Shown piece by piece: positions 315-47,361 of a stretch of 64,000 nucleotides of DNA. The stretch's first letter is position 1, and each line of letters starts with the position of its first letter. The notes beneath the pieces are model-generated. The model saw nothing but the letters and a program-made list of their open reading frames with translations. It did not search any database and was not told the origin of the DNA. The DNA is from a virus. Position numbers and translations under genes: made by a program. The stretch lies in the IMG/VR virus record IMGVR_UViG_3300048620_000017, positions 6,005 through 70,004 of that record; one strand, given 5' to 3'.

Positions 315-2728
315 CAGAGACTATCCTCCCATCCGCCCAGGAACACGGCGGCGCCACTGCCGTCGCTTGCAACTGCAATAGACAAAGCCTCCAGCACCAT
401 TTCCAGGCGGCTGTTTGGTGTAACTGTCGGATATCCTTGACCGTTTGAGCCCTGGATGCCGTTGTTTGTGCCGCCATACGTGGTGTTCGGGGCAACAATC
501 AGATTAGAGAGCGAGCCGGTTTTATAATAGCCAGTCGTATACAGGTAAACTTTCGATGCCGTAGAGGGCACGAAATTCGCCAGTGAAACGCTCACCATGG
601 TCGGAGAGGTCAGAGAAAAAGTGCCTTGAACGCCGCTCACTATTACTGGGGACAGCGTCGGATTGGTCCCGAGTACGATCTGAGCGGACTTGTCATACTG
701 AACCTTGAACCTGAGCTTTGAGCCAGAGTCATAATAGGTCGCGCCGACGCGCGCCTTGAAGGTATACCCGGCAGGCATGGTCGGCGCGGTCGAGCTGAGC
801 GACAGCAGCGACGCCACGGTGTTCGTCGTGGCGTTATAGATGACCCATTCGTAGTAAAAGGTCGAGGCTGCGATCGTGCCTGTGTCGAGGCCATTGGCGC
901 CCGACGTGCCAGTGGCATAGGAGACGTTGACTGCAGTGGCCCGATATGTGTTGCCAAAGGTGTCCTCGAGAACCAGTTGGTCGGCGGTGATCGTACCGGC
1001 CGTGATCGAGGTCGTGACGATTTTCAGGTTCTTGCGGGCAACATTCGTCGGCGATGCTGCAATGACTTCCTGGACGCGCCAGCCCGTCGAGGTGGTATCA
1101 TACCAGAGGTTGATCGACTGTGACGGCTGGACAATGATCGGCGAGCTGATCAGAAACCGATTTGCCGCCAGCGAGCCCGCATTGTTGCCCAGCAGAGTAA
1201 GGTTGGCCGTACCGATGTTGGTGAGGAAGAGGAAGGCATTTGTCGCGCTGGCGGAAAGGCCGGTCAGCACCGAACCAGCCGCATTTGGCGTAAGTCGCAG
1301 GACAGAAGATGTCGCAAGGTTCGCTGGAGCGTAGTCGTTGGTGTTGCCTGCGGCCAGCGCGGCCGGCGAGATGACGCCGGTCAGGGCAAACAGCCCGGAA
1401 TCGGTTACCGATGTGGCGCTCAAGCTCTTGTTGATGAGAGACTGAACGCTGGTCAGGTCGGCTGTGATGGACGTGTTGATCGAAAACTGCGAGCCGACGA
1501 GGTTGAGGCCATTGCCGGCGGTATAGGTGCCGAGACCAGCAGTCTGGGCGAACGTGATCGGATCGGTGCCGATGTTTGGATTGTCGGTGCCGTTCTGCGC
1601 CCAGGTCGTCGATGCGAACGTTGCTCCAGCAACGATGAATGTCTGGTCGCCGAGGTTGATATCAGCGGAGAGATTGTAATAGGTCGTTCGCGTCAGGACG
1701 AACGGTGCGCCGGCGCCGCCAGTCGCGGTGACCGTGTAGACGCCATTTTGGAACGTCGACGCCTGGTTCTTGACCAGGATCACGTCATTGACGGCTACTG
1801 CGGTGCCATCGACAGACAAAGCGCCGTTGGCAGTCGCCGTGAGCGTGGCGCCGACGCCAGAGGTGCCGTTCGCATAGGTGACGGTCGGAAGCGCGGCCGT
1901 TGTCGCGTATTTCGAAGCCGGCATCACGGTCGTGGCATAGATTGCTGCCTGCACATAGGCAGTCGTCGCAATCTTGTTCGAATTGTCGGCCGGTGTCTGC
2001 GTGACGGCGGTGGATGCCGTGCCGAGCGCAACAGTTGAGCCGTTCGCGAACACCAGAGGTCCAGTCCCGGTCCCATCGGGCACGGCTGTTGCAAGAGTTG
2101 CGCTCGTGCCGGCCGCGAGGAAGGCCGCCATGTTGGAGGCAAGACCGGAGATGTCTCCGATTGCCGGCTGGGCGAACGTTGGGTTGCCGGACGTGTCAAC
2201 GCCAGTCCCGAACTGGTGAGCAGGGGCCGCGGCGGACCTCACGCCACCCAAGGCCACCGTTTGTGGCACGGGAAGATCAGCCCCAACCAGTGCGCGGAAT
2301 GAGGGGGGCCCGCTTCCAAAGCCTGGGGTCGCGAGAATGAGGTTGTTGGACTGCGATCCCAGAGAGATTCCGCTGTCCGCAAAAGCCGTTCCGTTCGTGT
2401 TTGAAAAAGTGGGTATGTCGCCCACTACGGAAGTGGAAGGCCCGACGACGTTGCCGTTGCTGATCGGCCCGATGGTTTGGCCGCCGATCTGAAAATACAG
2501 GCCACTGATCGTCGTCCAGAAATCGCCGTTGACCGGCGCAGCTGGGGCTTGTCCTGGAGCAACGTTGAAACCGGCAGCGCTAGACGTCGATGGAGCGGTG
2601 CCTAGCGGACCCTGCATCGCATCGCCGCCCCGGTTGACCGGGGTGTAGCCGAGCGCATCCTGCTTTGAGGCGAAGTATGAGGTCCACTGGCCCGGCGTCG
2701 GAACGAAGCCATAGCTAAACGTCACCAT
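314..2728 (-). CDS. Long tail fibre / receptor-binding protein 2
   Basis: T/A/G/S-rich mosaic beta-structured protein downstream of baseplate; likely start MVTFSYG at 2728. Confidence 0.8.
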   Translation of the reverse strand: MVTFSYGFVPTPGQWTSYFASKQDALGYTPVNRGGDAMQGPLGTAPSTSSAAGFNVAPGQAPAAPVNGDFWTTISGLYFQIGGQTIGPISNGNVVGPSTSVVGDIPTFSNTNGTAFADSGISLGSQSNNLILATPGFGSGPPSFRALVGADLPVPQTVALGGVRSAAAPAHQFGTGVDTSGNPTFAQPAIGDISGLASNMAAFLAAGTSATLATAVPDGTGTGPLVFANGSTVALGTASTAVTQTPADNSNKIATTAYVQAAIYATTVMPASKYATTAALPTVTYANGTSGVGATLTATANGALSVDGTAVAVNDVILVKNQASTFQNGVYTVTATGGAGAPFVLTRTTYYNLSADINLGDQTFIVAGATFASTTWAQNGTDNPNIGTDPITFAQTAGLGTYTAGNGLNLVGSQFSINTSITADLTSVQSLINKSLSATSVTDSGLFALTGVISPAALAAGNTNDYAPANLATSSVLRLTPNAAGSVLTGLSASATNAFLFLTNIGTANLTLLGNNAGSLAANRFLISSPIIVQPSQSINLWYDTTSTGWRVQEVIAASPTNVARKNLKIVTTSITAGTITADQLVLEDTFGNTYRATAVNVSYATGTSGANGLDTGTIAASTFYYEWVIYNATTNTVASLLSLSSTAPTMPAGYTFKARVGATYYDSGSKLRFKVQYDKSAQIVLGTNPTLSPVIVSGVQGTFSLTSPTMVSVSLANFVPSTASKVYLYTTGYYKTGSLSNLIVAPNTTYGGTNNGIQGSNGQGYPTVTPNSRLEMVLEALSIAVASDGSGAAVFLGGWEDSL

Positions 2729-4888: not shown

Positions 4889-5638
4889 TTAGATGATGAC
4901 GACCGAGGCGCTGACGCCCGTTGGCTTCGGCAAGACGCCGGAATTCTGGACGATCGCGAGTTCCACCGGGGTGAGCTCGAACTCGAATGTGTATGTCATC
5001 GTCATCGTCGCGATGGCTGAGCCCGCATAGAACGATGCCTGGTTGAACCCGACGGAATTCAGCGATTCCTGAAAGCCGAACCATGTCCCGTCGTTGCCGC
5101 CTTCAGTGACGTAGGCGTTGCCCCTATTCGGGAAGAGGCCGAGCAGGATCTGATTGATTGCCGGGATCGAACCGTTGGTGATGTTCGCAGCCATCTTGGC
5201 AAAGATCAGCCGGCGATAGGCTTCGTCCGAAAGCGCGAAATTGCTCGTCAGCGTAGTGCCGGAATAGAACGAGCCCTGCCCAAATGGATCGGATCCCGGC
5301 GTCGCTTCCTCGAAACCAAACCAGTCGCCGGCGGTGACCTGCAGGACGCGGTTGACGCCGACGATGCGCCCCCAAATGTCGAGCCCGTAACCCTGCGCTG
5401 TATCGACGTTCCAGATGTAGTCGAAGAACGCATCGAAATTGGCGGTCTGGTCGAGATAGGCGAAGAGGTTTCCGATCAGCTGCGTCAGGGCTGGCGAATT
5501 CGCATACTGGCTGATGACCGTGCGCCATACATCGAATGGCGGATAGTCGCCCATCGGACTGATGCCAATGGCGAACTGCCCCAAACCATTCGGGATCCCG
5601 GCGGGTGGCCTGGGATAGGGAGGTCCTGTGTCAGCCAT
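4889..5638 (-). CDS. Baseplate wedge protein (DUF2612-like)
   Basis: ISQYANSP...TAQGYGLDIWGRIVGVNR...LSDEAYRRLI motifs; follows baseplate J. Confidence 0.85.
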   Translation of the reverse strand: MADTGPPYPRPPAGIPNGLGQFAIGISPMGDYPPFDVWRTVISQYANSPALTQLIGNLFAYLDQTANFDAFFDYIWNVDTAQGYGLDIWGRIVGVNRVLQVTAGDWFGFEEATPGSDPFGQGSFYSGTTLTSNFALSDEAYRRLIFAKMAANITNGSIPAINQILLGLFPNRGNAYVTEGGNDGTWFGFQESLNSVGFNQASFYAGSAIATMTMTYTFEFELTPVELAIVQNSGVLPKPTGVSASVVII

Positions 5639-5640
5639 GA

Positions 5641-7077
5641 TCAGCTCAGGGTCACGATGATGTCGTTCGGCGAGACCGTCGGCACCTGGTCGATATCAAC
5701 GTTGATGTCGAAGAGATTGGGGACGGCCGCCACCATGCTCTCGCTCGACACATTCGGCGTGGTCGAGACGATGTATGTTCCGGTGCCGCCAGTGCCTGTG
5801 CCCAAGGCCGTGATTGTGGTGCCGACCTTCAATGCGCCGGAGGTGTCGGAAATGACCTGACCGACGGCCAGGGTGCCCGAGGCGACGGCCGAGACAGTCA
5901 GCGTATTGCCGGCGATAGCCCCGGTGAACACAGCCGCGGGATTATTGTTCGAACCTATCTCGATCGAGATGATCTGCGCCCACGAGCCGAGGGCGGCCAC
6001 TGGTGCGTAGAACCGGCTGGCGAACAGTTTGGTACCGATCTTGGCGCGCGGCCCTCCGTCGCCCCCGGCAAACGCCGTGACGATGGCATTCTGGATCTGG
6101 GTTGCGGCATCGGCCGGAACCAGGTTCGAATTCACGATATTGACCGCGAACAGGATCGCCAGCGGATTAGGGATCTCGAAGCTCACCCGATAGGCGGGGT
6201 ATGGCGGGACATACTGCGGGCTCTGGTCGTAGACCGTGACTGTCGTGTTGCCGTTGTAGGCGCATCCCGGAGCTTTCCGGGTCCAGATCGCCTTGGCGAT
6301 GTCGTTGGCATTGCCGCCAACCACGGCGACATATAGCGAGTTCGGATAGAGCGAGACGCCGCCGATGGTCTGAACGTTGTTGCTGACGTTTTCGGTGACG
6401 AACGCATCGATGACATTGGGGACTGCGAGCACCGCGCCCAATACGGACGGAAGCGAGCCTTGCGAGTTCAGCGCGACCGAGGCGGCGCGGCGTGCCTCGA
6501 AAGCGGCGCGACCCTCGACATTGTTGCCGAGCACGCCGTCATCGGGATTGTTGATGGAATCCCACCCGGGGATCGCCCGGTAAATCTGGTTCAGGCTGCC
6601 GGCGGGGCAAGGAATTGGGCCGACCACCAAGCATTCAAACGGCAGGGTGACAGTGCCGCCGGCGCCGATGACGCCATCTTCCGTGCACAGATACTGGTTG
6701 CCATCGGCGGCCAGCGCCAGCGAGCCGGAAGGGATCGAAACGCCAGGCAATCCATTGCAAACTGCTTGCACGACGGTCGGCTGAGACGGATTTCGTTCGA
6801 GGAAGTAGATGCGCGCGATCGCATCCTGCATCCGGCCAGTCGCAAAAGCCGGATCCACCTGGTTGGTGAATTTCAAGAAGGTCGCGTTGACCTCGTCGAT
6901 CACCGCCGTTTCGCTCGTCGCGAGCTGGCCCTGCGGCGTGTCGAGCGCCGGGTTTAGGCCACCGCCGAAGGCTTCGTTGATGTCCTCCGTGACACCGGCA
7001 AGCACGTCAGCGGCAGAAGGGATCAGGAATCCCGTATCGGTCCACTGTGGCGGCGGAACGTTGGTGGTATCGACCAT
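5641..7077 (-). CDS. Baseplate J-like protein
   Basis: [30 protein letters not shown] motifs; gene position. Confidence 0.88.
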
Positions 7078-7081
7078 GTGC

Positions 7082-7432
7082 TTAGAAGCCCGCTGCGGTG
7101 GTGTTGCCCGCCGCGTCCGTCACCTGCACTTGGCCGGTGAGCTTGCGATCGGTCCATGACTGGATGAAACTCTGCGCGGAAACGACGCCGGGCACCGTCA
7201 AGGCGGCGCGATTGAAGTATGCCTTCATCAGCGATAGCGCCGGCGCCTGCCCCAGGATCTGCTGGAAATAGGGAATTCCTTGCGTCGTGTCATAGTAGAG
7301 CTCGCCCTGGAACAGACGGATGGCGCTCGCAGCGTCTTGCGCCAGCGCATAGGGCTCTTCCGCCACGGCGATATTGCCCGATGCATCATCGGTCAGGTCC
7401 CACGCGTCAGTGGTCAGCAACAGCGTCTTCAT
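7082..7432 (-). CDS. Baseplate wedge / sheath initiator (gp25/W-like)
   Basis: [18 protein letters not shown] motif between spike and J. Confidence 0.8.
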
Positions 7433-19886: not shown

Positions 19887-20240
19887 TCAGGCGAGCGCCT
19901 CGTCGACGACGCGGTACGGGCAGCGCAACAGCGCCGCGATCGCGGTCCGCCCTTTGCCCATCGCCGCCAAGCGCCGGATCTCTGCAACCGAGCTGACATT
20001 CGTCGCAGGCGAAGGCGCTGCAACATCGTCAACTAGAACATCGGCCAGAGGCGCCGGCTCTGTCTCAGCGGCCCGCTCTCGGGCATACTGGCGAGTGCCG
20101 CGCCTGATGTTGTAGCGGGCCGCCAATTGGCTGGGATAGCTCTGTGAGACGTTGAAGTCATAGGCGATCTGCGCCACTGGCACGCCGGCCACGTATTGCT
20201 TCAGCAGCGCTTGCCGCTGTTCCTCAGTCATCCGCGGCAT
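19887..20240 (-). CDS. Double helix-turn-helix protein
   Basis: N-terminal GVPVAQIAYDFNVS and C-terminal GKGRTAIAALL HTH-like segments; RBS AAGGGAG; start at 20240. Confidence 0.75.
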   Translation of the reverse strand: MPRMTEEQRQALLKQYVAGVPVAQIAYDFNVSQSYPSQLAARYNIRRGTRQYARERAAETEPAPLADVLVDDVAAPSPATNVSSVAEIRRLAAMGKGRTAIAALLRCPYRVVDEALA

Positions 20241-20265
20241 GCAAACTCCCTTGTTAAGGTCACCA

Positions 20266-20362
20266 GGCCCGCGACAGGAATCGAACCTGCATGGGATCTC
20301 GCTGCAGCGAGAGAACCGGCGGGGGACTAGCCCGCTGCGTCTACCTATTCCGCCACGCGGAC
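20266..20362 (-). ncRNA. Class II (Leu-type) tRNA-like RNA with aberrant anticodon loop and no CCA
   Basis: GTCCGCG/CGCGGGC acceptor, GCG-GAATAGGTAGA-CGC D arm, GCGGG-CTAGTCC-CCCGC arm, long variable arm, GCAGG-TTCGATT-CCTGT T arm. Confidence 0.8.
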
Positions 20363-20374
20363 CTGGTGCCTTTC

Positions 20375-20443
20375 TGGAGCGGATGCCAGGTGTCAATCCT
20401 GGCTCAGCGCCTATGGAACAGGCACCTCTCACGGAGCATCCGC
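20375..20443 (-). tRNA. Non-canonical 69-nt tRNA-Gly(UCC) with reduced D arm
   Basis: GCGGATG/CATCCGC acceptor + U73 + CCA; GTGCCT-GTTCCAT-AGGCGC anticodon arm; CCAGG-ATTGACA-CCTGG T arm. Confidence 0.78.
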
Positions 20444-20446
20444 GAA

Positions 20447-21178
20447 CAAATTATGAGGACCCGCTCAGCGATACCGAACGGGCGGCGCGCCGAGCGAGTC
20501 CCCTGGCTCCCCTTGCGGGAACCGTCGCAAGGCTGCGACTGCACGCGCCTCGCTGTCCTGGGAGGACCTCTGAAACTGTCTGGCTTGTAGCCTCCTATTG
20601 GAGAGCCATGCCCGCCGGTTTTCTGTTCGCCTCCATGCCCGGCTGCACCGGAAACAGGCATGGTCACGGCCGGGGAGTGTGCCGGCGCTCTCAGGGTCTC
20701 GAAGCCGGTCGGGGGAGGGATCAAAGCTTCGGACTGGTACACCGCCCGATCACCCTCCCCCATCTCCGGGGGTTTATATCGCAGCCAGACCGGCGTTGGA
20801 TTGCCGCGTTGTCGTCTCCCGCCCGCTATCCCAGCAGGCCTCGAACCTGGCATCTCGTTGCCCTGTCGGGCGAATAGGTTGGCGGGTGCCGGGTTAACTC
20901 CCCACCGAGCGATTTCTCGACCCGACTCTGCCTGTCCGCTCTGCGCTTCGTTACCGGACCCAGGGTCATCAGCTCTGCCGTCGCGAATGGCTTCAACGCT
21001 GGTGCGCACCCTCAAAACTGTTGCCCGGTCTCCCAACCGGGCTGGCCGCCGGGCTCTCCCATGGAAGAGCTTTTCAACAATCGGGGCGCGGCGGCTTCCC
21101 CTCCTATTATTCGGCTTGGGCGACAAGGTTTTCTGCAGACGTCATTTCAGCTGTAGTCTGCAAAGGCATTCGCCCAAT
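20447..21178 (-). ncRNA. Candidate large structured ncRNA (~730 nt) between tRNAs
   Basis: Many hairpins and junctions, G-U pairs that work only on the minus strand, T-loop-like GGTTCGAGGCC, no credible protein ORF. Confidence 0.65.
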
Positions 21179-21180
21179 TT

Positions 21181-21257
21181 TGGTTGCGGGGGTCCGATTT
21201 GAACGGACGACCTCCAGGTTATGAGCCTGGCGAGCTACCGGGCTGCTCCACCCCACG
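21181..21257 (-). tRNA. tRNA-Met(CAT), initiator (fMet) type
   Basis: CGTGGGGTGGAGCAGCCCGGTAGCTCGCCAGGCTCATAACCTGG...TTCAAAT...CCCCGCAACCA; C1:A72 mismatch; encoded CCA. Confidence 0.95.
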
Positions 21258-21266
21258 AAATCGCTT

Positions 21267-21306
21267 TGGTGCCATAATGGTTACAATCCGGCACCAATGG
21301 TGTCAA
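21267..21306 (-). promoter_or_regulatory. Sigma70-type promoter of the RNA cassette overlapped by a repressor operator
   Basis: TTGACA (21306-21301), 17 nt, TAACCA; operator TGGTGCCA-TAA-TGGTTACA at 21267-21285. Confidence 0.65.
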
Positions 21307-21312
21307 GCGGTG

Positions 21313-22407
21313 TTAGACGCCGACCATCTGCGAAATGCCCATCGGTTGGCGCACGATCGCGCCCCAGGTGCCGCTGGTCATCTTCTTCTTCCAGGACGAC
21401 AGCGCGCGGACGATCGGATGAGCGCGGAGCTTCTCGTTGAAAGCGCAATAGCCGGTCTGCTGGCCTTCGACGGCGTCAGCGATGAGCTGGACCGTATTTC
21501 CGGCCGCGATGCCCACAGGATTGACGGAGGTCAGCGCGCCATACTGCACCGCCGAAACGACCCGGAGACTCGGGAAGTTCTTCTTGAGCAGATCCTCGAC
21601 GTTGACGTTGAACGAGTTGGTCGCGGTCATTGCGAGCTGCGAACCCGGGTCCAGTGCCAGCGTCATCTTGGTGTTCTGGTCGACGAGGCCAGCGGTCTGG
21701 GTGACAAGCTGCAGCCAGAGCGACTGGATGTCGGCATAGATTTCGTTCGCCGTGGCGACGATCTGGCCGCTGTTGATCCACTTCACGCCGCCGTAGGCCT
21801 TCGGCGCCGGGGTGATCGGCGCCGACAGGTTCGGATCGTTGAGCAGACCATAGTTCTGCAGGCCCTGCACGCCCTTGAAATAGGTCGTGTTCAGGAAGCG
21901 GGCGAGCACGGTGACGCCGGCGCCGTCGACCTCGCTGACCCAATTGACGCGGCCCAGGCCAGCGCGCTCGACTTCCAGCTCGCCATATTCGGAGATGACC
22001 TGGAAGAGATAGGACTGGCGCTGCGGCCAGTTCATGTTCGCGCCGGCATGGCCGTTTTCGTTATAGTCGCCATAGCTCGACACTTCGCCGGTCTGCTCGA
22101 CAACCGGGAACATGGCCGTCTGATCGATCCATGTGCCCTTGCGGGTCTCGCCGAAGATCTCGGCGGCCTTCGTCGGGGCGAACAGGATGCGATAGACGTC
22201 CGGATCGACGAGCGTCGTCAGGAACGCCGGAATGCCGGTGTTCGCCGAGGTCGAGAGTGCCGGCTGCGCATCCATCGCGAGATAGTTGGTGCGGTACGGC
22301 TCGACGACATAGGCACGAGCGTCGGGAAGGTAGATGCCGGCCTGCTCGAACATTGGGCGATGCTGCGCCCAAGCTGAGGCGGCCTGGTTGAAGTCGTGGA
22401 ATTGCAT
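21313..22407 (-). CDS. Major capsid protein (DUF2184-like)
   Basis: FPVVEQTGEVSSYGD, YFKGVQGLQNYGLLNDPNL, GTWGAIVRQP; RBS GAGGAG. Confidence 0.93.
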   Translation of the reverse strand: MQFHDFNQAASAWAQHRPMFEQAGIYLPDARAYVVEPYRTNYLAMDAQPALSTSANTGIPAFLTTLVDPDVYRILFAPTKAAEIFGETRKGTWIDQTAMFPVVEQTGEVSSYGDYNENGHAGANMNWPQRQSYLFQVISEYGELEVERAGLGRVNWVSEVDGAGVTVLARFLNTTYFKGVQGLQNYGLLNDPNLSAPITPAPKAYGGVKWINSGQIVATANEIYADIQSLWLQLVTQTAGLVDQNTKMTLALDPGSQLAMTATNSFNVNVEDLLKKNFPSLRVVSAVQYGALTSVNPVGIAAGNTVQLIADAVEGQQTGYCAFNEKLRAHPIVRALSSWKKKMTSGTWGAIVRQPMGISQMVGV

Positions 22408-22472
22408 GGTGGTTCTCCTCACAGACCGCCGGCTTCAGGCCGGGCGAATGGTTCGAGGTTGATGGGAGGGGT

Positions 22473-23423
22473 TTAGCCCTGCGGCCAGGAACTGATCTTC
22501 ATCAGCTCGCCCGGCTGGGCGAAGGAACGCACGGTCCACTTGGTCTCGACGTTGGTGGCTGCCGTGAGAGCGGCCGAGCTGACGACGGTGTTGACGTCGA
22601 CGGCATACGTACCAGCGCCGCCGGCGGGACCGGTGAGCTGCTGCGTGATGGTGGTGGTGGCACTGATGCCGGTACCGGTGAGCGTGTCACCGATGCCGAA
22701 CACACCAGCGATGGTGCCGCCGGCGGTGAAGACGCCATAGGTGCCCGAAATCGCCGTGCCTGCGGCGACGTTCTGGCCCGGGATGCTGACCGAATACGTG
22801 CCGATGCCGCCGGGAGTGCCGGAAAGCTGAGACACGATCTTGGTGCCTGCGACGACATTGACGCCGGAAATGGTCGTGCCGGGATAGACGGTGCCAGCGC
22901 CGACTGCGGAGACATTCAGCACATTTCCGACGATCGAGCCGGTGAAGCTGCTGGTCGCCGCGGCGATCGAGCCGGCCGACGTGGTCGCGCCGTTCGGCGA
23001 GCCGGTAGCAGCTGCGCTTGCAGTGCCGTCGGCATAGTTGGCATAGACCTTCTGTCCAACCTGAGCCGGCGTGGCGCCGCCGTTCTTCATCCAGAAGTCG
23101 CCTTCATTGAAGACGGTGACCGGGAAGCCGGCAGGAACCAGCATCGAATATTCCTGCAGGTAGACCTCGATCAGGCCCTGCTGTTCGCGATGGATGAAGC
23201 CCGCGACCGGGCCACTGCCGAAGTTGTTGACCACGGCCGGCGCGTTGTCGCTGTCGAGCTGGCTATAGCTCAGCCAGGCGAAGCGGCCGACGATGGCGCC
23301 GAGAGCGCCGCAGACCAGCGCGCCAGCGGCGGCAAGGACGGTGGTGCGAGGATTGGTGGAAGCGAAGTCGCCCTCGACAGCCGGGGCTGGGTTGTAGGCG
23401 GCTTGCGTCTGAAAACCAGACAT
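22473..23423 (-). CDS. Capsid decoration/cement protein with two inserted modules
   Basis: PAVEGDFASTNP, GFIHREQQGLI, EGDFW, ETKWTV motifs; upstream of capsid. Confidence 0.8.
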   Translation of the reverse strand: MSGFQTQAAYNPAPAVEGDFASTNPRTTVLAAAGALVCGALGAIVGRFAWLSYSQLDSDNAPAVVNNFGSGPVAGFIHREQQGLIEVYLQEYSMLVPAGFPVTVFNEGDFWMKNGGATPAQVGQKVYANYADGTASAAATGSPNGATTSAGSIAAATSSFTGSIVGNVLNVSAVGAGTVYPGTTISGVNVVAGTKIVSQLSGTPGGIGTYSVSIPGQNVAAGTAISGTYGVFTAGGTIAGVFGIGDTLTGTGISATTTITQQLTGPAGGAGTYAVDVNTVVSSAALTAATNVETKWTVRSFAQPGELMKISSWPQG

Positions 23424-39304: not shown

Positions 39305-39323
39305 TGTAACCATTTTGGCTACA
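39305..39323. promoter_or_regulatory. Operator TGTAACCA-TTT-TGGCTACA
   Basis: One mismatch to consensus. Confidence 0.8.
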
Positions 39324-46431: not shown

Positions 46432-47361
46432 TCAACCCCGATCTGCCGAAGCAGTTCCCATTCTTGATACAGATGGTGCCAAATTGGTTACATTATTGGC
46501 AAGCGAAAGGTCGGCCGGCCACCGTGTTTTCCGCAACAATCGCCTACTTTTGATGGCCGACTGAACGCCTGGCTCGCCAAACTCTCGGCGGATAGATCCC
46601 ATCCATTCGCGCCATTCAGGCCGCTCAGTCGTGATGATGAAATATCCCTTCGCGTCGATCTCGGGAGCGTCGTGGAATTCGGCCCACGCCCCATCGCGAA
46701 GAAACAGGATCATCCGCACCGGCTTATTCCGTCTCAGCATGGCGGTCCGATAGGGCTCGGCAGCGCTCAGGACCTTCTTCCGGTCAGCCTCGTCAAGTTT
46801 GCAGAACAGCCTTGCTGCGGCCTCGCGGTTGTCTGGGCGGCATTGCTCCGGCCATGCTGACCACAAGATATCGAAATCCTTCCCCCCTTCGCGCGCCAGC
46901 GCGCCATGGTGGGTTTTTGTTTTTGAATCAGTTCTTACTAATCCGTCCTGATTTGCCGTATCCGGCTCAGCCGTGTCTGGCTTTTCAGGAAGTAGCTCTG
47001 CCACTTCCGTGTTTTCAGTAAGTGGCTCATCCACTTCCGTCTTTTCAGGAAATGGCAATTGGTCTGGGACAGCATCATCATAGACGACATAGTCGTGAGA
47101 AACGATCCTGGCCTGCTCATCGCGCTTGATAGTGACCTTGATGTAACCAGCGTCTTTCAGCTCATTCAGGATCCGGTAAACCTTGTCGCGGCCAATGCCG
47201 CCAGCCTTCTGAATATCGGCTATCTGGACCTGCCAGTTGTGCGGCTTCGCTAGGAGATAGCAGAGCACCCCCCTCGCCTCGAAGGATATGCGGCTGTCTT
47301 CGGCTACAGCATTCGGAATGATGGCAAACCGATCGCTCCTGCGACGAGTGACGACGGTCAT
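46432..47361 (-). CDS. Replication initiator protein (N-terminal winged HTH)
   Basis: FAIIPN...DSRISFEARGVLCYLL...GRDKVYRILNELKDAGYI; internal iterons. Confidence 0.85.
   Translation of the reverse strand: MTVVTRRRSDRFAIIPNAVAEDSRISFEARGVLCYLLAKPHNWQVQIADIQKAGGIGRDKVYRILNELKDAGYIKVTIKRDEQARIVSHDYVVYDDAVPDQLPFPEKTEVDEPLTENTEVAELLPEKPDTAEPDTANQDGLVRTDSKTKTHHGALAREGGKDFDILWSAWPEQCRPDNREAAARLFCKLDEADRKKVLSAAEPYRTAMLRRNKPVRMILFLRDGAWAEFHDAPEIDAKGYFIITTERPEWREWMGSIRREFGEPGVQSAIKSRRLLRKTRWPADLSLANNVTNLAPSVSRMGTASADRG
46474..46492. promoter_or_regulatory. Operator TGGTGCCA-AAT-TGGTTACA inside initiator CDS
   Basis: Same half-sites as the operator at 21267. Confidence 0.7.
46911..47056. repeat. Putative replication origin: 30-bp-period iterons plus AT-rich flank
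   Basis: (C/G)TTTTCAG(G/T)AA units at 46981, 47011 and 47041; T-rich 46911-46940. Confidence 0.78.

Follow-up and report, generated by a model that had tools for sequence, protein, structure and literature searches.

We know of no function for GOLLD and ROOL, the large structured RNAs encoded beside phage tRNAs. A preliminary description of a 64,000-nt stretch of DNA, here called the window, proposed that about 730 nt of it might be a further large ornate RNA in a similar setting, possibly of a new class. The window comes from a 70.5-kb IMG/VR provirus, and the region in question lies on its minus strand at 20448-21180 (~733 nt). What kind of element is this: a protein gene, a member of a known RNA family, one large folded RNA, or something assembled from smaller parts? 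Our analysis favours the last of these. The region is best explained as a composite, tRNA-linked phage RNA made of exchangeable modules and carried in an accessory ("moron") cassette of a temperate Mesorhizobium-type phage, a reading to which we assign a probability of roughly 0.55.

A tRNA-bearing cassette directly behind the major head gene

The head protein of the provirus is 88% identical to prophage proteins of two Mesorhizobium genomes, so that its host, judged from this similarity, is probably Mesorhizobium or a close relative. All genes around the region are read from the minus strand. A cement or minor head gene (22473-23423) is followed by the major head gene (21313-22422; phrog_264), a gap of 1.07 kb that is devoid of codon periodicity, a 117-aa helix-turn-helix (HTH) gene (19887-20240) and, beyond it, a 99-aa ORF and then the phrog_2085 and DUF4054 head genes. 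Within the gap are a tRNA-Met(CAT), the ~733-nt RNA region and an aberrant type-II tRNA. In full, the cassette runs from a promoter-like site with an operator palindrome through tRNA-Met, the ~733 nt RNA and a tRNA-Gly-like element without a D-arm to a Leu-like tRNA, and it is located directly after the major head gene and before the next head gene.

The tRNA-Met (21181-21257, minus strand) was called by ARAGORN and scores 56.1 bits with the Rfam tRNA model. Alignment shows that its first and last acceptor positions are unpaired (C1xA72), as in initiator tRNAs, and the same initiator-type tRNA-Met stands at the start of RNA cassettes in at least six further loci from phages or prophages (L002, L095, L101, L104, L106 and L114).

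The 3′ boundary of the cassette is formed by M8 (20375-20443, minus strand), a 69-nt tRNA-Gly(UCC)-like element that has no D-arm and an encoded CCA. It has a 7-bp acceptor stem and is conserved in six loci (the window, L002, L095, L014, L006 and L030). ARAGORN calls M8 solely in its relaxed or mitochondrial mode, in the window, L002, L095 and L014. In the L014 copy the anticodon is CCC, and its stem carries a compensatory G-C to A-U substitution; this looks like the mark of selection for a functional tRNA. When IMG/VR was scanned for the M8 pattern, only already known loci were returned.

The last element is a type-II Leu-like tRNA (20265-20363, minus strand) with the aberrant anticodon loop CUAGUCC, which ARAGORN reports as "tRNA-???" and which scores 38.8 bits with the Rfam tRNA model. 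In the standard register its anticodon reads AGU; position 37 is a pyrimidine, the discriminator is C and no CCA is encoded.

Upstream of tRNA-Met, a promoter-like TTGACA box and an inverted repeat resembling an operator (TGTAACCA-N3-TGGCACCA) occupy 21267-21306 (minus strand) and are conserved in L002, L095, L006 and L030. A 19-bp palindromic operator-like site of the type TGTAACCA-N3-TGGTTACA occurs four times in the phage, with none expected by chance: besides the 19-mer at 21267 there are copies at 39305, 46474 and 50669 with two or three mismatches, and the copy at 46474 is placed between a TTGATA box and a TTACAT box. Judged by this recurrence, one regulator appears to serve both the cassette and three further phage promoters. 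A consensus promoter scan made no call at 21267-21306, and a Pfam search of the genes adjoining the operator copies gave no informative match. A candidate for the protein that binds the four copies is the 117-aa HTH protein of the cassette itself.

The region is non-coding

One alternative is that the region encodes a 240-aa protein, since a frame of that length is open at 20404-21126 on the minus strand. Neither PHROG nor Pfam gives a match for this frame. The spread of GC content among codon positions is flat (0.02-0.22 over 20275-21250), as compared with 0.3-0.5 in the flanking head gene. Homologs are separated by 1-nt and 2-nt indels, and the X2 copy described below exchanges 76 nt for 107 nt, a 31-nt length change; both disrupt the frame. 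The frame also spans conserved RNA hairpins and enters the tRNA-Gly-like element. Because codon-position GC is flat, protein families are silent and indels break the frame in homologs, we conclude that window 20448-21180 is non-coding. The earlier claim of about 730 nt with no credible coding sequence thus stands, and a protein-coding gene that lacks periodicity, a conserved frame and a family match is effectively refuted.

The region belongs to no known RNA family

To place the RNA among known families, the whole window was scanned with cmscan against all 4227 Rfam 15 families at gathering thresholds, a library that covered every large ornate RNA family in Rfam; tRNA alone was matched. This is the check that the preliminary description had called for, and it assigned no family besides tRNA. 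A permissive scan of 20000-21600 (E≤10) yielded the two tRNAs and one chance miRNA match, and scans of 18 homolog loci, by gathering threshold and by E-value, found tRNAs only. A direct search of the whole 70-kb record with the ROOL model (RF03087; gathering score 99.1 bits) gave nothing at E≤10, a search in which the control genomes were silent too. ARAGORN with the -m option reported no tmRNA. The region therefore belongs to no GOLLD, ROOL or other Rfam family: GOLLD was rejected on the library scans of the window, the region and the homolog loci, and ROOL on the same library scans together with the direct search, whose controls were likewise silent. We also considered a hammerhead ribozyme around CUGAUGA in the module M3 (below). 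L002 reads CAGAUGA and L095 AGGAUGA at this position, Rfam gave no match, and the candidate was dropped.

The resemblance in context is nevertheless real. GOLLD and ROOL are both carried by prophages near tRNAs, GOLLD env-38 sits downstream of a Met-tRNA, and GOLLD combines a conserved 3′ region with a variable 5′ region (PMC12286853). Like GOLLD, the present RNA is phage-borne, several hundred nucleotides long, non-coding and directly downstream of a Met-tRNA, with conserved and variable parts and tRNAs at the locus (PMC12286853); the location near or just downstream of a tRNA in a phage or prophage is reproduced here by a tRNA-Met immediately 5′ of the RNA in an IMG/VR provirus. It differs from GOLLD in that its conserved part is central (M3) and not the 3′ domain, in that no global fold supported by covariation was found, and in that its modules also occur independently elsewhere. 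GOLLD is further characterised by the P-helices of its universally conserved 3′ domain and by assembly into a homo-oligomeric cage. ROOL (RF03087) is likewise prophage-borne, often near tRNAs, ~580-700 nt long and non-coding; the difference lies in the blank library scans and in the lack of a match at E≤10 in the direct search with its silent controls. Hence, of the proposed GOLLD/ROOL-like context, the phage-borne, tRNA-adjacent and non-coding character is retained and family membership, with Rfam scans blank to E≤10, is not.

Long copies are mosaics of exchangeable modules

Four long copies were found: the window itself, X2, L002 and L095. X2 is a contig in an isolate run that is 97.7% identical to the window, with 19 differences and with 20778-20853 (76 nt) replaced by 107 other bases; L002 is an IMG/VR locus and L095 a 2.2-kb metagenome contig. 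The long copies measure 0.7-1.2 kb between identical boundaries, tRNA-Met and M8, and their alignment demonstrates that they share differing subsets of modules. Directly after tRNA-Met, the window carries M1a and L002 and L095 carry M1b. M2 is present in the window and L095, while L002 keeps only its P3 hairpin. The middle is variable, with M5 in L002 and L095 and M6 in the window and L095. M3, M7 (a GNRA-capped hairpin and a long closing stem) and then M8 are found in all long copies. The 733 nt are thus a concatenation of separately evolving, exchangeable structured modules, namely M1a, M2, M3, M4, M6 and M7.

Several modules also stand alone in other prophages. The RNA was compared by BLAST with 202 Mesorhizobium genomes, and further copies came from a model of M2 (R1) and from a pattern scan of IMG/VR. 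In L101, tRNA-Met and M2 lie behind an HK97-type head gene; in L104, tRNA-Met and M1b lie beside an HTH homolog; L100 has M6 alone, near a small terminase gene; and L102 combines M8 and an HTH homolog with an M6 of which only the 3′ half is present. Model R1 identified L106, in which a phrog_1005 head gene is accompanied by tRNA-Met and M2. The pattern scan added L112 and L113, where M2 lies behind phrog_371 head genes with no tRNA; in L113 it ends up ~20 nt upstream of the ribosome-binding site of a head-tail adaptor gene. M2 is always found within a few hundred bases downstream of a major head gene, in five phage backgrounds, and it has been kept behind capsid genes of three different PHROG families. 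Dispersed repeats of the REP, RIME or MITE-like kind are rejected for now, since the modules are single-copy in the five genomes holding them.

Two observations concern the neighbourhood of M2 in these prophages. A further module, "M9", follows M2 in two unrelated prophages (L106, reverse complement, 1587-1700; L112, 1528-1600), and its lead, GAAUUACCCGAGGGG, resembles that of M2. In L112, a 254-codon open frame (1241-2005, plus strand) encloses both M2 and M9, and its last ~120 residues match the phrog_6188 protein of L101. Either this frame is open by chance in DNA of 75% GC, or an RNA element lies within a disordered linker.

The RNA is otherwise sparse. BLAST against GenBank phages and PLSDB plasmids returned tRNA-Met matches only, and an exact-pattern scan of IMG/VR with two core 17-mers found the L002 record and one chance intragenic match (L054). 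In 401 genomes of the family, searched at the DNA level, there was nothing beyond short, chance-level matches. A model of the M3 core (R2) produced nothing above 21-24-bit matches in 151 Mesorhizobium genomes, which we treated as noise, and model R1 found no M2 in 151 genomes of the order.

Covariation within the modules

Read along the minus strand, the region begins with M1a (21108-21180), a long hairpin of UUGGGCGA/UCGCCCAA with inner UGCAGAC/GUCUGCA. It has no counterpart in L002 or L095, its place being taken by M1b in both and in L104, and the X2 contig stops within it at 21156.

M2 (21022-21102) is a three-helix motif that consists of the lead AGGGGAA, the helices P1, P2 and P3, and a U-rich tract. 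Model R1 gives six distinct sequences scores of 34-107 bits. P1 (GCCRCCG/CGGYGG) has one covarying pair, a G-C to A-U change in L106. The P2 stem differs in five of the six sequences, with pairing always kept; the three-sequence alignment contains six compensatory pairs, a number reached in 0 of 500 shuffles, and slid controls gave 0-2. P3 (GCCCGGY-UGGGAG-RCCGGGC) occurs as four different stems under a loop of the UGGRAG type. Four of the six P2 apical loops centre on the self-complementary CAUG. Invariant GGGG and CCCC beside the 5′ strand of P1, where there is no variation, could form a pseudoknot.

The 142-nt core M3 (20880-21021) is common to all long copies and is 87-92% identical in L002 and L095. 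It holds one compensatory pair only and has a folding z-score of +0.75; given this near-absence of covariation, its conservation may have a non-structural cause. M4 (20689-20879) is a variable filler with GCCC-GACA-GGGC, a T-loop-like hairpin and a GGGGGAGG/CCUCCCCC hairpin. As such it occurs in the window only: X2 replaces 20778-20853 within it, and L002 and L095 carry other modules there. M6 (20571-20688) comprises three hairpins, including CCAUGCC/GGCAUGG, and is also present in L095, L100 and partly in L102. It shows two compensatory changes, a number reached by 66 of 500 shuffles, and several G-U-compatible (C-G to U-G) changes. Between L002 and L095, M5 has three and M1b four compensatory pairs; the same pairs arise on the reverse complement, as expected for local hairpins.

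M7 (20448-20570) combines the GNRA-capped hairpin with a terminator-like end, made of a 16-bp terminal stem and a U-rich tail (AUAAUUUGUU). In a pattern-based terminator scan it went uncalled, since an interior loop interrupts the stem and the U tract is not continuous. L002 and L095 have an analogous closing stem, and L014 has an M7-like piece. The covariation sets comprise few sequences, too few for R-scape. The comparisons suggest that several modules are under selection for structure, with M2 as the clearest case and the other modules weaker.

The helices listed from the window alone can be re-read in this light. All the local ones occur in the sequence and in the minimum-energy fold, but several are not conserved. 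GCUCU/AGAGC and GCCCGGU/ACCGGGC, which are P2 and P3 of M2, CCAUGC/GCAUGG in M6 and the terminal stem with its G-U pairs are all backed by homologs. The M1a hairpin, GCCC-GACA-GGGC and GGGGGAGG/CCUCCCCC are present but specific to the window, and the T-loop hairpin, also present, lies in the segment that X2 replaces and is missing from L002 and L095. CCUUGCG/CGCAAGG competes with the conserved GNRA-capped hairpin (GGUUCCC-GCAA-GGG..) and is missing from L095. The proposed long-range pair UUGAAGCC/GGCUUCGA (20989-20996 with 20699-20706) is disrupted in X2 by three uncompensated changes, and neither L002 nor L095 offers a partner segment. Finally, the palindrome GGUGCGCACC, suggested as a multimerisation site, is confined to the window and X2; UGCGCA survives of it in L095, and L002 shows no palindrome at this place.

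Fold stability, strand and expression

Over the whole region, the excess of folding stability over shuffled sequences is greater on the minus strand (z -3.1) than on the plus strand (z -0.9; 20 shuffles each). Per-module folding with 200 shuffles each placed the excess stability mainly at the two terminal hairpins: M1a has z -4.3 on both strands, and M7 has z -5.4 on the minus strand versus -1.1 on the plus strand. With dinucleotide shuffles, the interior modules score -1.6 (M2), +0.75 (M3), -0.2 and -1.3 (M4) and -0.6 (M6). Since interior modules are no more stable than shuffles at 65% GC, their folding is ordinary for such sequence, and the impression that the region folds end to end is largely expected. 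The L002 homolog is hairpin-rich as well, with z -4.45 in sense and -4.06 in antisense.

One-sided changes favour the minus strand: C-G becomes U-G at 21067, G-U at 20473 becomes G-C in X2, and M6 and M5 contain C-to-U changes opposite G that fit minus-strand pairing. A contrary case is 20988, where the window has A-C and its relatives pair G-C. Thus, of the minus-strand, end-to-end fold that had been described, the preference for the minus strand is borne out by the z-scores of the whole region and of M7 and by the G-U changes, but the interior is at shuffle level.

In a metatranscriptome from the same habitat, one identical 243-nt contig covers 20819-21061, including M3, at a depth of ~2, where DNA carry-over is possible. 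For the rest of 20240-21320, the same dataset gave nothing but tRNA-Met matches from other organisms. We regard the contig as a hint of expression, not proof.

A variable slot between head genes

Both the head gene and the phrog_2085 gene are visible in 46 of 51 related IMG/VR loci. The two genes are at most ~400 nt apart in 38 of the 46 and are separated by an insert of 1.0-3.1 kb in the remaining eight; 43 of the 46 loci are without any piece of the RNA. Among the eight, the long RNA is confined to L002 and a remnant of it to L014, whose insert carries an M7-like piece as well as M8 and two small ORFs; protein cargo was found in six. The inserts of L006 and L030 encode a PAS-HWE histidine kinase and a response regulator, and those of L003, L004, L005, L007 and L011 an HTH protein and a SulP/STAS sulfate permease. 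The same protein cargoes are present in Mesorhizobium genome loci, the kinase type in L055 and the permease type in L058; the kinase cargo of L006, L030 and L055 lies at about 5280-7120. The borders are kept despite the change of cargo, with the TTGACA box and inverted repeat at the 5′ side and the 69-nt M8 (20443-20375) at the 3′ side. This slot, bounded by the head gene and phrog_2085, is a hot spot of lysogenic conversion.

In L005 (5110-5800), and also in L003, L004, L007, L011 and L058, ~700 nt without codon periodicity directly follow the head gene. By BLAST this stretch is unrelated to the RNA studied here, and it has no Rfam match; it may be another non-coding element in the slot.

Discussion

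Together, our results favour a composite RNA in an accessory cassette over a single ornate RNA or mere filler. In favour of the composite reading, the long copies are mosaic, modules are found alone elsewhere, and compensatory pairs fall within modules; the non-coding character, the control region of the cassette and the identical metatranscriptome contig are in line with it. The cassette is regarded as accessory because most related loci are without the insert and the cargo of the slot varies, and the RNA is assigned to the minus strand because of the G-U-compatible changes and the asymmetry of the M7 z-scores. Several results weaken the composite reading. Interior stability equals that of shuffles, covariation in M3 is near nil and only four long copies are at hand; homologs were not found in the 401 genomes of the family or the 151 of the order; consensus scans called neither the promoter nor the terminator; and the M2 of L112 lies inside a long open frame.

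One possible alternative is that the region is, after all, one large ornate RNA of a new class, an analogue of GOLLD and ROOL with a core of M3, the P3 hairpin and the M7 closing stem, a variable periphery and possibly self-assembly. The 0.7-1.2 kb copies do share the boundaries tRNA-Met and M8, and P3, M3, the GNRA hairpin and the closing stem are kept in every one of them; the context is GOLLD-like, down to the Met-tRNA upstream of env-38 and the division into conserved 3′ and variable 5′ regions (PMC12286853); L002 folds with z -4.45; and the CAUG loops of P2 in four of six M2 sequences are self-complementary. Against this stand the lack of any conserved long-range pairing, the one proposed pair being broken in X2, and the non-conserved GGUGCGCACC palindrome. 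M2, M6 and M1b stand alone in other phages, L002 does without M6 and P1 and P2 of M2, the window does without M5, and M3 itself, at z +0.75, offers one compensatory pair. We therefore consider this account unlikely, and the single 730-nt ornate fold first proposed gives way to modules that are swapped among homologs and found singly in unrelated prophages. It is tempting to speculate further, at similarly long odds, that there is a new class of 0.7-1.2 kb phage RNAs co-transcribed with an initiator tRNA, in which plug-in domains surround an M3 core, which would parallel GOLLD and ROOL in function, with self-assembly or an effect on translation initiation as possible activities, M2 being a separate, new and independently mobile motif tied to capsid genes.

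Even less likely, in our judgement, is that most of the region is functionless filler, a recombination-prone moron slot that collects hairpin-rich scraps, with the terminal hairpins and tRNAs alone of importance. The RNA is rare and turns over fast, as illustrated by the swap of 76 for 107 nt in the otherwise 97.7% identical X2; interior z-scores are near zero; the window has A-C and G-A mismatches where relatives pair; and unrelated protein cargo occupies the slot in relatives. Filler would not account for the compensatory changes in M2, M6, M5 and M1b, for the retention of M2 behind capsid genes of three PHROG families, or for an M3 that holds 87-92% identity while its flanks are replaced. 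A role as a cis-acting element of the head operon, one that would raise capsid output above that of downstream proteins through mRNA stability or partial termination, seems to us quite improbable. It would fit the placement of M2, in five phage backgrounds, no more than a few hundred bases downstream of a major head gene, the GC-rich P3 hairpin with its U-rich tract, the strong M7 hairpin with its U-rich tail, and the M2 of L113 placed ~20 nt before a ribosome-binding site. However, 730 nt far exceed the need of such a signal, the cassette has its own promoter-like region and operator, 43 of the 46 related loci do without any piece of the RNA, and excision of the intervening tRNA would uncouple the RNA from the capsid gene.

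We then propose a model for the composite RNA. A promoter bearing a phage operator would drive one transcript that comprises the initiator-type tRNA-Met, the ~733 nt of structured RNA and a strong, strand-specific terminator-like hairpin, followed by the minimal tRNA-Gly-like element. RNase P and 3′ trimming enzymes would free the tRNA and leave one or several stable structured RNAs. These may act in trans or as processing or termination signals, like the stable RNAs of the T4 tRNA cluster. The neighbouring initiator tRNA, minimal tRNA-Gly-like element and aberrant Leu-like tRNA suggest a role tied to translation or tRNA biology; as the position behind capsid genes does not vary, a cis effect on the expression of the head operon is also conceivable.

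Two known systems are close to this model. The tRNA cluster of phage T4 encodes small stable RNAs, species 1 and 2, of ~120-140 nt. Like them, the RNA described here is structured, non-coding, linked to phage tRNAs in what would be one transcript, and presumably freed by tRNA-processing enzymes. The T4 RNAs are single units of ~120-140 nt in a lytic phage, whereas the present RNA, from a temperate alphaproteobacterial phage, strings modules together over ~730 nt; the likeness drawn here is one of description. Phage morons are accessory cassettes between structural genes with their own promoter and terminator. The cassette resembles them in its slot between head genes, its own control region, its terminator-like end and a cargo that varies among close relatives; it differs in that the cargo is RNA only, tRNAs and structured RNA, with no protein genes.

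If the reading is true, a third unrelated example, in alphaproteobacterial prophages and immediately downstream of an initiator tRNA, would show that the tRNA-linked arrangement of large phage RNAs arose more than once, and a rhizobial example would offer a genetically tractable system. The modular build suggests that such RNAs assemble from small mobile structured units, of which M2, covarying across three capsid-gene lineages, would be one. The cassette also brings together an initiator tRNA, a minimal tRNA-Gly and an aberrant Leu-like tRNA, all of them unusual, a grouping that points to a phage that manipulates translation or tRNA-directed defence.
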